Assembly (NCBI GenBank): GCA_963727505.1
Contig: CAVSGP010000004.1
Span: forward strand, 768,001-832,000
Reading direction: 5' to 3'
Source: an uncultured Trueperaceae bacterium
GTDB taxonomy: Bacteria > Deinococcota > Deinococci > Deinococcales > Trueperaceae
DNA length: 64,000 nucleotides
The translations under genes were made by a program, and so were the position numbers. The notes below the pieces were generated by a model that worked only from the letters and a program-made list of their open reading frames with translations, was not told where the DNA came from and did no database searches. This document shows, in pieces, positions 11,800 through 62,707 of the stretch; positions within the stretch are counted from its first letter, which is position 1, and the number at the start of each line of letters is the position of its first letter.

Positions 11800-11902
11800 G
11801 GCTCGCAACGTCTGGGGGCCGCGCAGAGCGGCGGAACACGCTCACCGACACCCGTTCCGCTGGGTACGATAGCGACAGTCTCGTCCCGGAGCCACTTTGC
11901 CG

Positions 11903-14866
11903 ATGAAGTTCGTCGCGACCCTCGCCTGCCTGCTCGCCGCGCTCCTCAGCGCGACCGCCTTCGCTCAGACCGCGACGATCGACGTCAACGCACCGCCGGA
12001 CCGGCTGGCGCTGCCGGGGGCGTTCGTGACGCTGGTCTACGTGGTGAAGAGTCCCGTCAGCGGCCAGGCGCAGGTCGAGGTCGCGTCGCAGCACGGGTAC
12101 ACCCTCCTGGCGCCACCGCCCACGGCGAACCTCATGGCCGGCGTCGCGACGCCCTTCGCGGTCACCGTGGAGATCCCGAACGACGCGCCGGCACTGTCGG
12201 TGGACGCCGTGACCCTGACCGTGACGCTAGGCAGGCGTCCAAGCGCAGGGGACGGTGCACGTCACCATCGGGGAGAAGCGCGGCCTGACGATCCAGGCGC
12301 CAGCGGAGGTAGCGGTGTCGGCCGGAACGATCACCTTCACGGTGGTCAACCAGGGGAACGTCGAGGAGAAGGGATCGTTCCTGGTCACGCAGAACGGGAC
12401 GACAGTCCTCGAGCGTGCGCTCGCGCTAGCCGGGGGTGACCGCCAGGCCGTGACGGTCCCTGCAACCAAGCCCGGGTCGGTCCAGGCGACCTTCTCGGTC
12501 GGTGGCAAGGAGCTGGCGCGCGGCTTCACCCGGGTGGTCCAGCAGGGCGTCCCGTCACCGCCGCCGATCCGGCTCCATGCGGACGTAACGGGCTCGATCG
12601 ACACGACCGCGGCGTGGGGCTTCTCCGTGAAGGTGCAGGGGTCGCTCTCGGACTACCTGACGACCTCCGGGGCGCTCTACGTCGATCGACCGCCGCTCGA
12701 GCTCGCTGTCGCTCGATGCGCCCGGTTGGCAGGCGTCGATCGGCGCACTCGGCGGAGCCCCGCTCGGACTGTCGCTGCCGTCCGAGCTGGGGATCCGTGG
12801 GGCCTACAAGGACGGACCCTGGACCGCCGGGGGCGGCGCCACCTGGATCGGCGCCGACCGCTTCGCCGGGTACGCCTTCGGCGGCCGCAAGGACGAGCAC
12901 ACGGTGTACGCCGGCGCCGTCGGCATGCACGCCGGAACGCCCATGGCCGTGCTCTCGGCCGGACAGACCCACAAGGCGAGCACCTGGACGATCGCCGCAA
13001 CGTTGCTCGACGGCTCGCTCTCGGGTTCGGCGGCCGCCAGACAGCGGGACCCCGAGACGAAGGGAACGGCCAACGTCTCGGTCGGCGTCTCTCGGGCTGC
13101 TCACGGACAGCGGGACGCTCCAGGTCAGCGCGGGATACAGCGACGGCCTCGCCAGCCTCTACGGCAGCGCGACCGCGCCGATCGGCTCGCAGGCGGTCGG
13201 GGAGCGCCAGGGGCGGGGCGGTCCTACGGCTCCCGGTGCCGATCGCCGGCAGCCTCTACCTCCATCTGCAGGGGGCACCGACGAGAGCTTCGCCTCCCTC
13301 GGCTACGCTGCGGCCTTGGGCAGCGGGATCCAGACGAGCGACAGCCTCGGGATCACCAACGCCGGCGGGTCACCGGGCGTGCACGCGTCGACGTCGTGGG
13401 CCTACGTCGCTGGCCCCGGGAACACGTTGGGGGCCGATGCCGACCTCATCTACACGACCGGCCGACGGCAGCGTGACGGGGCGCGTCGCGGCGCGCTACG
13501 CCGCGGGCTTCGGCCCTGCCGCCTTCAGCGTCAGCGGGGGCTGGGACCTGGGCCAGGGGACGGTCGGGATGGGCAGCGCCTTCTCATGGGACGGAGGGCC
13601 CTGGAGCCTGCAGGTCAACGGCGACGCCGGGCTGGACACCGTCACGGACGCTTTCAACTTCGGCCTGGGCCTGACCGGGCACGTGGCCGTCGACTTCGAC
13701 GTTCCGGAGTCGGTCGTGCGCGCCACCGGCGGCCGCCGGCTCGGGCACCCTCGAGGGGCTCGTCCACGCCGGGTCGGCAGGGCGTCCCGGGCGTGACCGT
13801 CAGGGTCGGGCCCGTACCGGGTCGCACCGGCAAGGACGGTCGCTTCGACGTCCAGCTTCCGCCCGGCGAAGTCCGGCTGGCCCTCGACCTCATGACCCTG
13901 CCCATCCAGTACCAGGTCGAGGGCCCGCTTGAGCGCACGGTCACCCTCGCCGCCCGGCATACCGCGCACGCCGACTTCCCGGTCGTCGCTTCGGCGGCCT
14001 CACGGGCAGCGTGCTCCTGGACAGCGATGGCAACGGCACGCCGGACACGCCGCCCAAGTCCGGCGGAGGCACCGTCCTCCTCACGACGGGGGCCGAGCAG
14101 CCCGCGCGCCCTCCAGGTCGACGCGAACGGGAACTTCTCGGCTCGCGGGCTGCTTCCCGGCACGGCAACGCTGAAGCTGTCGAATCTCCCGCTGGGCTCG
14201 CAGGTCGAAGGCGCGGACACGCAGACGGTCGACGCTGCGGGCCGGGAGCGTCAGCCACGCCACCTTCCTCGTCGAGCCCGCCGTCGTGAGCGCGCCGGTA
14301 TTCGGCGCCAGCAGCTTCCGGATCCGGTCGGTCGCGACGGAGGTCGCCAAGGTGCCCCCCGGCGCCGCGCCGCTCGTCACCGTGAAGGTGCAGGGGCATG
14401 CCGACGCGCGTGGACGTCGTCGTGAACGGCGCCGAGCCACGCCCTGAAGGGCAAAGCGGCGACACCTGGACGGGCCGCGTGCCGGTGCCACCGGACGCCA
14501 AGAACGGGGTGTTGAGTACCAGGTCGTGGCGACGAGCGGGGCGGCCACTGTCGAAGCGCGACGGTCAGCTCCTGGTCGACCCGTCGGCCGCGGCCGTAAC
14601 TCGGCGAAGGCGAACGGTGCCGGCCAAGGCTGGGCGGCGTCCAGAAGGTGAACGTGACGGTCTACCTGCAGGCGACGAGCGTGAGCTGACATCGCCGTTC
14701 GGTGGTCGGGTGAAGGCTCGGAGAGCGCAACCCGGCCGCTGGACGGCCGACCTCCCGGTCCCCGACGGCACGAAACCGGACATCTACAGCGCGAGCTACA
14801 CCGTCACGACCGAAGACGGTCGCACGCTGACCGGGGACGTGCGGTTCCGGGTCGTCGCCCCCTTGA
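11903..14866 (+). pseudogene. large exported usher-like protein (Ig-like N-domains, beta-rich central region, carboxypeptidase-regulatory/SdrD-B-like C-domains), broken by multiple frameshifts
   Basis: Signal peptide MKFVATLACLLAALLSATAFA. Coherent protein segments continue across different frames: ...VHVTIGEKRG..., ...AFSVSGGWDLGQG...FNFGLGLTGHVAVDFDVP..., ...VLLDSDGNGTPD..., ...DVRFRVVAP. May be sequencing indels rather than true decay. Confidence 0.6.
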
Positions 14867-14890
14867 GTGCTTGGTCGGCTTCGGCTTGCC

Positions 14891-15852
14891 TCAGGGGTTG
14901 GGTTGCGCCGCGTAGGTCGCGGTGAAGCTGTAGGCTCCCGCCGCTTCGCCGCCGTCCACATGCAGCCCGAAGTCGGACGGCGTCAGGAAGGTCACGTAGC
15001 CGCGGTGGCCCGACGTGCTGCTGAAGACGTAGCCATCGGCCTGCGGTCCGCCGAAGATCCGGATGTCGGGCACGCCCAGAGACGAGTTCGGTCGGCCCCG
15101 AGTTCTCCACCACCGTCACGTCGACGCGGTAGCCGGTGGGGTTGTTCGTGGCGACTGCCAGATCGACTGAAGTCGCCGACGTCATCGGCAGAAGATGCAC
15201 CGGTTCGCACGGCCTGGAGGTAGGTGACGAAGTTCGAGAGGGTGTAGTCGAAGTCAACGCTCGCCGTCTGCCCCGCCGGCACAGCCGTCGAGGAGGAGGG
15301 ACACGTACGATGGGATCGTCACCGTGATGGTCGTCGTGACGGAGTCTCGCACCTTGTTCCCGTGGCTCGGTGGGCCGTTCGCATCCCACGCGTGGAAGGT
15401 CACGGTCGTGGTGTAGGTACCTGGCGGCTCGCTGCCGTCGATGCGCAGCCGGTACTCGACCGAGACGTCGGTCTTGTTGACGTCGTGCGTGAAGAGCGTG
15501 ACCGGGATCGTCGAGATGGGCGCCCAGTCCAGTACGATCGGCTCGATGTGCGGCCCCGACAGGGTGATCCGCGCCTCCAACGTCATCGGTGTCGGCGGGG
15601 ACCAAGGGGACCGCGAGACCTCGAGGCTGTAGGCGTTCTTCTTGTCCTGCAGTACCTGGAAGGCGATCGGCGACGTCGGGCTGGTCGGGCTCAGCGCGCC
15701 ACCGACCGCGGCCGCGTACTCGGCCTGGGTGGGCAGGAACTGCACGCCGTTGCTGCAGTCCTTCGGGGGGACGCAGTGGATGGTCTGGGAACCGCAGCTC
15801 CCCCGCCAGGCCGATCGCCACAGCGAGACAATGGGCGCAGAGAGCCAACGCA
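14891..15852 (-). pseudogene. two-domain minor pilin/adhesin-like exported protein, frameshifted
   Basis: Stitched frames give two pilin-like domains ending in EYRLRIDGSEPPGTYTTTVTF and FGLHVDGGEAAGAYSFTATYAAQPNP*. N-terminal Cys pair HCVPPKDC. Confidence 0.55.
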
Positions 15853-16622
15853 CTACTGCACCTCGTACGGTAGTTGTCCCGGTCAGAAGGCCCCCGCGGG
15901 AGTCTTTGAGGAGAAGCAGAAGGACATAGTAGCCCTTCGGTAGGTCCGGCATCTTGACCGAGATGTCCCGTTCGCTCTCCCTGAGGATGGCGCTACTACC
16001 GACCGAAAGGCTCTGGACAGTATTTCCGGTGGTGTCCCGCACCTCGATCGAGCCCGAATACCGCATCACCGTGTTGCCCTCGTTGGCGACGATGGCGTGG
16101 ACGCTAGAAGCCATCGCGGTACATGTCGGTGAGCTTCGATCCGTTCTTCTCGGTGCCGGCGACGGTGACATAAACGACCACACCGACCCGCTGCCGCATC
16201 GAGACCTGCGTACCCGAAGCCGTTCCCGGCGCCGCGGGCGTCTCTACGAACATCACGGCGTTGTAGGTCCCGGCCAGCATCGGGTCGTTGGGCACCTGGA
16301 TGTTGAGCCGGACTGACTGCTGCCCCGCCCCCGTCATTTCCACCGAATCGCTCGGGAGCTGGATCCAGGACGCGGCGCTTAGGCGACCTCTCCCGGCGCC
16401 AGGTACGTGAGCTGACCGTCTTGCGCCATCGCCCAATCATTCGTCGCCAGGCCGAGCCGTACAGCGTCGGTGCCCGTCCAGATCGCATCGAACGTCGTGG
16501 TAACCGACCCCCCCACGGGGACTGTTGACATCGATTCGCGGTGGCGAGACGCCGATGTCCGCCGCATGCGCGGCGGACATCCAGGGAAACAAGAGTATGA
16601 GGAGTGAGGGGGATCGGCGCAT
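15853..16622 (-). pseudogene. PapD/DUF916-like pilus-assembly chaperone, frameshifted
   Basis: Stitched frames: signal peptide, IGVSPPRIDV, SAASWIQL, LAGTYNAVMFVE, RQRVGVVVYVTV, VANEGNTVMR, LPKGYYVLL...LPYEVQ*. Confidence 0.65.
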
Positions 16623-16633
16623 TGCTCATCACA

Positions 16634-17190
16634 TCATGGCACGGAGGCCGAGTAGGTTACCGTGTAGGTGTAATCGCCGGGGGTCTCGGTGCCGGTCAGG
16701 CCGAAGCTGAAGTCGGAGCTGTCCGTGATGAGTGTCTGCCAGCTCGGAGCCGTAGTGTTGTTCGTGCCGTTGATCGTCATGGTCGGATTGGTCGTGAGCG
16801 CTGATGTTGAGCATGATCTCGCCCATCACCGTCCCGTCCATGCCCGTACCACTGCCCGCGGAGGTGATAGGCCGTCACTGTGACGTTGCCGGAGGCGTTC
16901 GTGAACCCCTCGAGCGAACCGAAGGCCGTGCTGCTATCCGGCGCCAGCGACACGGTGCCGCTCGTGGCCGCATTGCGGATCTCGGCAACGGTGGGCGTGA
17001 AGCTGACGTCGTAGGTGCGGTACCGTTCAGACGAAGCATGACGACGTACGGGATGTGGACGAGGACGTGTGCTGGACCGGCCATCGATTCGCGCCATTCG
17101 TGGTCGCGATGAAGTCGTCGACTGCGCAAACGACGCGCCGACCGTTCCCAGGAGGAGTGCAGCTGCTGCGATGAGGATGGTCTTCTTCAT
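16634..17190 (-). pseudogene. major pilin-like exported protein, frameshifted
   Basis: GGAGG SD and Sec-type signal MKKTILIAAAALLLGTVGASFA. Thr/Ser/Gly-rich, about 185 codons. C-terminal FSFGLTGTETPGDYTYTVTYSASVP* resembles the terminal strand of CS1/Csu-type pilins. Confidence 0.6.
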
Positions 17191-17213
17191 AACGTTCCCT
17201 CCGGATCAAACAG

Positions 17214-17291
17214 AATCGGCCGGTCGCGCTACTAGCTCCACCTGTCCCAAGCGCCCGAATACAGGATCAGGTTTCATCGCTTCCGAAGGGA
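17214..17291 (-). ncRNA. c-di-GMP-II riboswitch
   Basis: Minus strand reads UCGG-AAGCGAUGAA-ACCUGAUCC-UGUAUUCGGGCGCUU-GGGACAGGU-GGAGCUAGUAGCGCGACCGG-CCGA. This shows P1 (UCGG/CCGA), kink-turn GAUGAA/GGAG, a stem ACCUG-UCC/GGA-CAGGU and pseudoknot CGG-GCGCU/AGCGC-GA-CCG, matching the class-II consensus. Confidence 0.85.
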
Positions 17292-17560
17292 TCCCCGCCA
17301 GCTCGATTTGGTGGGGAGTTCGTAAGACTGACCGGAGCCTAGCCAGGGCAGACTTACAGAACTCTTAATCGGCGTGCTGTTTGTGGAGTCCTTTACGCGT
17401 CCTGGACGGGTTTGTTGGAAATCCCACAGAATGCGGCTCGCCGCGGCCTCTTCCGATGCGCTGCAGAGATGCCGTCCTGGACGAAGGTTCGGCGTGCGGG
17501 TGCTCCAGCGACGAGAGCAGGCCGTCCGACGGGCACGTGGGTCCCCGAGGACACGGCGCC

Positions 17561-17600
17561 GCACAGCCAGAGCACAGCCAGAGCACAGCCCGAATACAGC
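17561..17600. repeat. 11-bp-period direct repeats (GCACAGCCAGA x2, GCACAGCCCGA, ATACAGC)
   Basis: Units start at 17561, 17572, 17583 and 17594, in the divergent intergenic region between the pilin operon and the S4 gene. Confidence 0.8.
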
Positions 17601-17684
17601 GCCGTCGATCCCGCACCCGCCGTGCGCCCGCCCCCTAGCCACACGTTGGCCACCCCGCGCCCACCCCGCGCCTACACTGGAGGC

Positions 17685-18065
17685 ATGAACGACGGGCCCG
17701 AAGCCACACCCCGCGGCGACCGCCCCGGCGACCGCCCTTCCATCCGCCTGGACAACGTCCTCAAGCTCGCCGGCATCGCCGAGACCGGCGGTCAGGCGAA
17801 GCGCATGATCCAGGGCGGGGAGGTGCGGGTGAACGGCACGGTCGAGACGCGCCGCAAGCACATGCTCCACGACGGGGACGAGGTCGAGGTGCAGGGCGAG
17901 ACCTTCGTCGTCGAGTTGACGAGCGAGGACGAGCTCGAGGACGACATGGACGATGTCCTGGACGACGGCCCGCACCCTGCAACGGACACCCCACCCAGTG
18001 GCGCAGCGGAGGAGAACGGGCCCGACGGCGCGCCGGACCCCGACGCTCGCCCACCCCGCACCTGA
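17685..18065 (+). CDS. RNA-binding S4 domain protein (YaaA/YbcJ-like) with acidic tail
   Basis: IRLDNVLKLAGIAETGGQAKRMIQGGEVRVNGTVETRR motif. TACACT lies 6 nt before the ATG. Confidence 0.88.
   Translation: MNDGPEATPRGDRPGDRPSIRLDNVLKLAGIAETGGQAKRMIQGGEVRVNGTVETRRKHMLHDGDEVEVQGETFVVELTSEDELEDDMDDVLDDGPHPATDTPPSGAAEENGPDGAPDPDARPPRT

Positions 18066-53998: not shown

Positions 53999-54075
<77 letters not shown>

Positions 54076-62630: not shown

Positions 62631-62707
<77 letters not shown>

Follow-up and report, generated by a model that had tools for sequence, protein, structure and literature searches.

A c-di-GMP aptamer in front of a gene for a secreted protein raises the questions of whether it controls that gene, in which direction it would do so, and what the gene makes. 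We addressed these questions for a locus on the minus strand of a 64,000-nt stretch of DNA from an uncultured Trueperaceae bacterium; the whole stretch is called the window here. Translational activation by high c-di-GMP is the best reading of the locus and a reasonably probable one, ligand binding and the sign of the switch being the parts of it that we infer.

A class-II aptamer in front of the subunit gene

The aptamer in front of the gene starting at 17190 is a genuine class-II c-di-GMP aptamer. The first-pass annotation had recognized it from the letters, and a check with the Rfam covariance model (Infernal type) agrees: RF01786 (c-di-GMP-II) matches the minus strand at 17209..17293 over model positions 1-84 of 84 with 62.1 bits (E 2e-11), compared to a gathering score of 53.5 bits. 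Between the end of this match and the ATG of the subunit gene at 17190 lie 18 nt. The last canonical P1 pair, A17216, is 25 nt upstream of the ATG, which is the distance of about 25 nt that had been given for the aptamer end. On the minus strand the leader reads ...GAUCCCUUCGGAAGC...ACCGGCCGAUUCUGUU UGAUCCGGAGGGAACGUU AUG, with the following elements:

17209..17293, minus strand: full-length c-di-GMP-II aptamer (Rfam RF01786)
17282..17291, minus strand: 5' strand of P1 with its 5' flank, UCCCUUCGGA, the anti-SD (pairing, folding)
17225, minus strand: G in place of A69 (Rfam alignment; numbering and role of A69 from PMC13715770)
17216..17219, minus strand: proximal 3' strand of P1 (CCGA), partner of UCGG 17286-17283 (Rfam alignment, folding)
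17206..17215, minus strand: linker from the proximal P1 strand to the SD box, varying in sequence and length among orthologs
17196..17205, minus strand: SD box UCCGGAGGGA (SD GGAGG 17201-17197), distal partner of the 5' P1 strand (duplex of -16.9 kcal/mol)

P1 is short in this leader. Of its 11 pairs in the Rfam model, only four make up a canonical inner helix, UCGG 17286-17283 with CCGA 17219-17216 (-3.5 kcal/mol), and four others are non-canonical. The helix follows directly after ACCGG and has a non-canonical top, where A17282 stands opposite G17220. All seven pairs of the pseudoknot between the P3 loop and the 3' junction are possible in the window.

To follow these elements in related genomes, 17 leaders (16 distinct) upstream of the orthologous subunit gene were collected. 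The riboswitch is present upstream in 17 of 30 loci around the chaperone-like gene that follows the subunit gene; L030, whose 5' end is cut, was left out, L032 is the window, and L015 was added. Pairs were counted on a MAFFT alignment of the leaders. In the 17-row alignment P2 and P3 are paired in 94.1% and 91.9% of cells, with changes on both sides in 5 of the 8 P3 pairs, and the pseudoknot is paired in 99.2% of 119 cells. Since the pseudoknot pairs are invariant, they show no covariation. For the aptamer with proximal P1 (plus P2 and P3), 82.4% of cells are paired and covariation is 0.312, compared to 0.131 in shuffled alignments, a level reached by none of 500 shuffles. The four proximal P1 pairs form in 13-15 of the 17 rows, with one compensatory change (C-G to U-A). 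Across the orthologs P1 comprises 3-7 pairs, and none in two rows (G093 and G094).

Matches to RF01786 occur in 115 of 128 genomes of the same taxonomic family, and among 14 control genomes that of D. radiodurans alone has one. The genome of the window itself (G000; 15 contigs, 97.4% complete) has ten matches, eight of them above the cut-off. Three tandem class-II aptamer pairs are found in it, at C4:708550-708821, C9:145230-145503 and C2:272031-272277, and most ORFs downstream of its ten aptamers have an N-terminus resembling a signal peptide or that of a lipoprotein. A second copy of TCCGGAGGGA, located beside ACCGGCC at G000:C2:261758, is not an aptamer. A literature search, with most subscription journals outside its coverage, returned no study of class-II riboswitches in Deinococcus and no study of translational class-II switches.

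The 5' strand of P1 can pair with the SD box

The 5' strand of P1 and its flank, UCCCUUCGGA (17291-17282), can pair with the SD region UCCGGAGGGA (17205-17196) over ten contiguous positions, one of them a G-U pair, giving a duplex of -16.9 kcal/mol. Because the same UCGG is used by both helices, the anti-SD helix and the 4-bp proximal P1 (UCGG/CCGA) exclude each other. The first-pass annotation had proposed both the 10-nt pairing and its exclusivity with P1, and both withstood calculation. It had also called for folding of the two conformers. The minimum free energy of the leader is -36.0 and includes the anti-SD helix, whereas the aptamer-constrained fold reaches -21.9; the nearest-neighbour energy gap in favour of the OFF fold is thus about 14 kcal/mol. 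In the ligand-free ensemble the SD is already paired to about 100% (pairing probability about 1.0 for 17204-17197), so that a ligand can only open it. When proximal P1 was forced, the unpaired fraction of the SD was 0.45-0.76 in five of six window-like leaders and 0.19 in G007.

The UCCCUUCGGA strand is identical across six related genomes. Directly 5' of the anti-SD (window 17292-17298) there is a conserved G-run, which reads GGGG, or GGAGGG in G057 and G056.

The arrangement recurs among the orthologs. In all 17 leaders a spacing of 11-25 nt separates the aptamer from the ATG at the start of an MKK... signal peptide, and this leaves no room for another expression platform. In 12 of them (window, G004, G007, G003, G006, G019, G088, G057, G056, G054, G093 and G094) the SD box is the partner with which the P1 5' strand makes its longest helix, 8-12 bp that include the GG of P1. 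The strand forms 7 bp with each of two partners in G070 and 6-7 bp in G126 and G047, and G137 and G071 have other arrangements. Across the orthologs the 3' arm of the SD helix begins 5-16 nt after ACCG, and the linker differs in sequence and length.

Direction of the switch

In the class-II structure the ligand bases are located between P1 and the pseudoknot stem, and a non-canonical A.G pair atop P1 forms the floor of the pocket (PMC13715770). The corresponding pair in the window would be A17282.G17220, on top of proximal P1. In the distal helix A17282 is the partner of U17205, and 15 nt separate G17220 from this helix. As the distal helix thereby removes the pocket-floor pair, it and ligand binding should exclude each other.

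These relations suggest the following mechanism. In the absence of ligand, a 10-bp helix of UCCCUUCGGA with UCCGGAGGGA would mask the ribosome-binding site. Once c-di-GMP is bound, the aptamer would be folded, with its short P1 (UCGG/CCGA) stabilized by the ligand stacked on it. This would leave the SD box without a partner and open to ribosomes, and high c-di-GMP would turn on synthesis of the subunit, the product of the first gene of a putative surface-fibre operon. The large energy gap in favour of the OFF fold means that ligand and tertiary energy, or kinetics, must compensate for it. Control would probably be kinetic, as the aptamer is transcribed before the SD box; only about 11 nt lie between the two, which leaves a short time for ligand binding. 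The genome has 21 GGDEF matches, indicating that the c-di-GMP signal is made. No terminator-like site is present in 16500-17800, and a promoter scan upstream of the leader gave no sigma-70-like site.

The proposal that high c-di-GMP turns the gene on at the level of translation, which goes back to the first-pass annotation, is thus upheld in part. The SD is paired in the ligand-free state and the P1 strand is conserved; on the other side, covariation of the distal helix is weak and the SD falls inside P1 in L043 and L024.

The last point belongs to the main alternative, that the element is OFF or does not switch. The long SD helix would then be P1 in the bound state as well, with the linker looped out, and the ligand would strengthen sequestration or leave it as it is. 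The distal helix is indeed far more stable than proximal P1. Moreover, the covariance model sets the SD within P1 in 2-3 orthologs (L043 from G047 and L024 from G093), where the element would be expected to act as an OFF switch. For G137 and G054, folding predicts a stem coaxial with P1 in which the SD is bound by the flank upstream of P1. Such orthologs suggest that the sign of the switch may differ within the group. For the window we nevertheless consider this alternative improbable on three grounds. The proximal CCGA(A/G) is conserved and includes a compensatory change. The pocket floor is a non-canonical pair atop P1 directly after G73 (PMC13715770), and the distal helix would insert 15 nt at this place and engage A17282 with U17205. 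Finally, a helix of -17 to -22 kcal/mol would keep the first gene of a conserved operon permanently untranslated.

If the translational ON reading is correct, the leader is a compact, purely translational class-II example in a high-GC diderm. Its rival helices of 10 and 4 bp would provide a clean system for studying how ligand energy and folding order can beat a far more stable OFF helix.

The genes behind the riboswitch

The controlled gene is followed by two further genes on the same strand and a convergent neighbour:

16634..17190, minus strand: gene for a secreted Ig-like fibre subunit with Sec signal peptide MKKTILIAAAALLLGTVGASFAQ, at least 3 frame changes (ORFs, G004 ortholog)
15856..16622, minus strand: gene for a two-Ig-domain protein resembling WxLIP and chaperone-usher chaperones (gene 2), at least 4 frame changes (model of the G004 ortholog)
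14891..15855, minus strand: third gene, secreted product that repeats the subunit C-terminal motif twice, at least 3 frame changes (comparison)
11897..14925, plus strand: convergent gene for a large secreted protein, a conserved neighbour, at least 10 frame changes (comparison)

An intact operon is found in the related genome G004 (gene products of 201, 255 and 318 aa), and the G004 proteins were used for modeling. Fold and complex models make the product of the first gene a Sec-secreted Ig-like subunit that is probably assisted by the protein encoded next to it, as in donor-strand complementation. A type IV pilin was considered and rejected, because type IV pilins have a class III signal peptide and a hydrophobic N-terminal helix, whereas this protein starts with a Sec-type signal peptide (final residues SFAQ) and continues as a beta-rich chain.

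The subunit model is an Ig-like sandwich with a pLDDT of 74.2. A Foldseek search of the PDB with it left nothing at or below E 0.001. In VIA the top-scoring structures are chaperone-usher pilins, with Z 6.4 (rmsd 3.0 over 106 residues), 6.1 and 5.8, values in a range that is common for unrelated folds and below the level separating true relatives. The gene 2 model is better defined (pLDDT 89.6). Its best Foldseek match is 9i1y, WxLIP of E. faecium, at E 1.1e-11, followed by the chaperone-usher chaperones CsuC, CfaA, Caf1M, FimC and PapD at E 2e-9 to 1e-7.

The complex model of the subunit with the gene 2 protein scored 0.76 against 0.14 for the best control, where the mark applied to such models is reached by 116 of 157 solved complexes and by 2 of 215 mismatched pairs. 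Contact agreement among the runs was at least 92%, and the pLDDT of the partner was at least 75. In the predicted interface the first and last strands of the subunit pack against residues 20-29 and 135-147 of the other chain. The model supports binding of the subunit to the gene 2 protein; as solved chaperone-subunit complexes exist, the pass may reflect likeness to these.

Sequence families are silent on both proteins. With the ORF pieces of the window and the intact G004 proteins, Pfam and NCBIfam gave no family above cut-off for the subunit or gene 2, and a profile search of the sequences of solved structures returned nothing below E 0.098 for either protein. A word-based homolog search found only four proteins, and leads in a protein atlas were PapD-named clusters for gene 2 and weak SCPU and WxL hits for gene 1. 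The earlier suggestion of a pilin of a different class stands as far as a Sec-secreted Ig-like subunit is predicted by fold and complex modeling; sequence families give it no backing.

The chaperone-like gene is present in 50 of 128 genomes of the family. Of the 30 related loci, 26 include the third gene and 21 the C-terminal part of the convergent large gene. The riboswitch would tie c-di-GMP to an unnamed fibre-assembly operon in these 50 of 128 genomes, providing a handle on the role of the operon.

Some further features of these genes were observed. The third gene (window 14891-15855; L012:1684-2640) carries the subunit motif …DG.E.PGTY..TVT… twice and has a weak, sub-threshold match to NF058581, the C-terminal domain of CPR Pam pilins (E 1.7e-5; 25 bits, cut-off 55). 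The large convergent gene is split into two ORFs in G004 (L051:7594-10728), where its ortholog contains a CarboxypepD_reg domain. A paralogous subunit-like gene (…VTVHIPTVLRLSID…) follows the tandem aptamer pair on contig C9 (G000:C9:145230-145315 and downstream); beside it no close chaperone-like homolog was found with the G004 query.

State of the locus in this assembly

All operon genes are frameshifted in this assembly, with at least 20 frame changes across 11897-17190 and almost none in the flanks. Identity to G004 is 73-88% over 12.0-17.12 kb, where 1-nt indels are numerous. In the flanks (4.2-11.9 kb and 17.12-21.9 kb) it is 92-99%, and indels within genes are all but absent. The locus thus forms a hyper-divergent island at 12000-17120 with sharp edges, the right one directly behind the part of the riboswitch-controlled gene that encodes the signal peptide, and the mature part of the subunit has no nucleotide similarity between close relatives. 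Such a pattern would be expected of a variable surface structure. Elsewhere genes are intact, including carB, the M32 carboxypeptidase and all 21 GGDEF matches, which contain no stops. Two tRNA genes are found on the plus strand of the window, at 53999-54071 and 62632-62704.

The frame changes could mean that the operon is dead and the riboswitch a leftover. Their concentration, with at least 20 across 11.9-17.2 kb and almost none in the flanks, is in line with this, and the orthologous operon of G003 (L046 / L014) also contains stops and frame changes. Metagenome data argue otherwise. Contigs assembled from short reads in two studies do not have the 1-nt insertions at the seven sites that they cover (15008, 15086, 15161, 15196, 15284, 12225 and 13198), so that the frameshifts are likely consensus errors. 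In some metagenome records the difference from the window amounts to 1-2 substitutions with 2-4 gaps over 208-297 nt, which is the signature of such errors. The sequencing runs listed for the stretch are metagenomes, with no RNA run among them; they contain at most 0.27 of its sampled words, and contigs cannot show expression. Furthermore, the leader is identical to that of G004, where the genes are intact. We therefore regard decay of the operon as unlikely; the frameshifts are probably consensus errors at a hypervariable locus.

Chance and covariation tests of the SD helix

The complementarity between the leader strands might also be a by-product of a pyrimidine-rich P1 strand facing a purine-rich SD, in which case the riboswitch would act by some other route, such as Rho or mRNA decay, or not at all. 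By energy alone the pairing is ordinary: 265 of 1320 SD-like sites of the genome pair equally well with the 23-nt 5' region, and a duplex at least as stable as the observed one arises in 80 of 5000 mononucleotide shuffles of the 5' strand. The leader as a whole is not unusually stable either (z 0.78; 156 of 200 shuffles are as stable). The contiguity of the helix tells against a by-product, as a full 10-bp partner within 25 nt of the ATG occurs at only 6 of 1320 SD-like sites, the window site included. So does its recurrence: although the linker drifts, 12 of the 17 leaders, which span several genera, retain a helix of 8-12 bp, always within the narrow spacing of aptamer and ATG described above.

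On the alignment the distal helix is conserved and its covariation weak. It is paired in 86.7% of 143 cells compared to 84.0% in shuffled alignments (10 of 500 shuffles reach this), four of its pairs changed on both sides (e.g., C-G to U-A in G057 and G056; 34 of 500), and covariation is 0.220 compared to 0.181 (12 of 500). Some rows are out of register at the distal helix, which counts against it in these numbers. When slid by one column the helix is still paired in 66-70%, both strands being of low complexity, and pairing in slid registers is what a by-product would give. A comparison of matched and permuted duplexes across orthologs (410 of 20000 for the SD helix, 63 of 20000 for P1) was set aside as evidence because it is confounded by relatedness. 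Taking both sides together, we give a fortuitous origin of the helix little credit compared with the translational ON switch.

A substitution in the ligand pocket

Ligand contacts in the class-II structure are made by A69, A70 and G73 (3Q3Z numbering), with three hydrogen bonds joining A69 to one of the ligand's guanines (PMC13715770). In the window the Rfam alignment places a G at 17225 (minus strand), where the ligand-contacting A69 normally stands; A70, G73 and the first A-U pair of P2, which also belongs to the contacts of the solved pocket, are present. Among 32 distinct aptamers, seven have G at this position, six of them in subunit-gene leaders and one in a sub-threshold match. It is common to the subunit-gene leaders of G004, G007, G003, G006, G019 and G137, and absent from 22 other aptamers. 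That the substitution makes the aptamer a poor sensor of c-di-GMP, or shifts its preference to another cyclic dinucleotide, is a slim chance: the loss of an A that normally makes three hydrogen bonds, the clustering of six of the seven GA cases in subunit-gene leaders and the retention of G69 in genomes with intact operons would fit, but all remaining pocket positions and the pseudoknot are kept and the Rfam score exceeds the cut-off. As a natural A69-to-G variant, the aptamer is directly testable for ligand choice.

Comparison with known systems

The predicted chaperone invites comparison with two kinds of fibres. Archaic chaperone-usher pili of the Csu type have been reported for Deinococcus-Thermus (PMC4654587), and the modeled gene 2 protein shares the two-Ig-domain fold of their periplasmic chaperones. 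For the subunit, in contrast, VIA scores are too low to separate relatives from common folds, and there is no SCPU match. Assignment to the chaperone-usher pili by family was rejected, as the genome (97.4% complete) has no match to PapD_N (PF00345) or Usher (PF00577) and gene 2 has no Pfam match.

The WxL (Elr) pili of Bacillota are described in a preprint as built from a WxL pilin and a DUF916/DUF3324 chaperone by donor-strand exchange; the preprint reports them as confined to Bacillota and their chaperones as membrane-tethered (bioRxiv 10.64898/2026.10.17.759780). Resemblance to this system is seen in the best structural match of gene 2, which is WxLIP, in the gene order (subunit, then chaperone) and in the end of the subunit, a W..L ... 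TVTYT..P motif. The differences are that the host of the window is a diderm outside Bacillota and that the gene 2 protein (255 aa) ends in a beta strand, its model having no C-terminal membrane helix, unlike WxL chaperones. Pfam WxL (PF13731) matched 0 of 20 subunits. PF06030 gave weak matches in 3 of 21 chaperone-like sequences, and PF11797 was not among the listed families.

A joint reading of switch and cargo is tentative and, we think, rather less likely to be right than wrong. In it, the G69 pocket variant would be a purely translational ON switch, and its cargo would belong to fibres that are chaperone-guided and donor-strand-assembled but form a third lineage by sequence. They would depend on a soluble periplasmic chaperone outside PapD_N and DUF916/DUF3324, have no recognisable usher and a hypervariable major subunit, and be spread through the Deinococcus family and, judging by look-alike clusters, other phyla.

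The add adenine riboswitch is of the translational ON type, and a strand of its P1 doubles as anti-SD. The window leader resembles add-type switches in that P1 formation competes with a helix hiding the SD. It differs from them in ligand class, in the use of the 5' and not the 3' strand of P1 as anti-SD, and in its SD box, which repeats the proximal P1 3' strand.

The closest counterpart by aptamer family is Cdi-2-4 of C. difficile. The four class-II switches of that organism are ON switches acting by anti-termination, and Cdi-2-4 stands before pilA1 (PMC6366702). This substantiates the precedent cited in the first-pass annotation, in which a c-di-GMP-II switch turns on a type IV pilin. Both leaders have an aptamer of the same family before the gene of a major surface-fibre subunit; Cdi-2-4 is ON, as the window leader would be. 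Whereas Cdi-2-4 acts on transcription, the window leader has no terminator-like site and its SD comes 8 nt after the Rfam match; the cargo is a type IV pilin in C. difficile and a predicted Sec-secreted Ig-like subunit in the window. If the riboswitch reading holds, the locus represents a known kind of switch and a new example of it.
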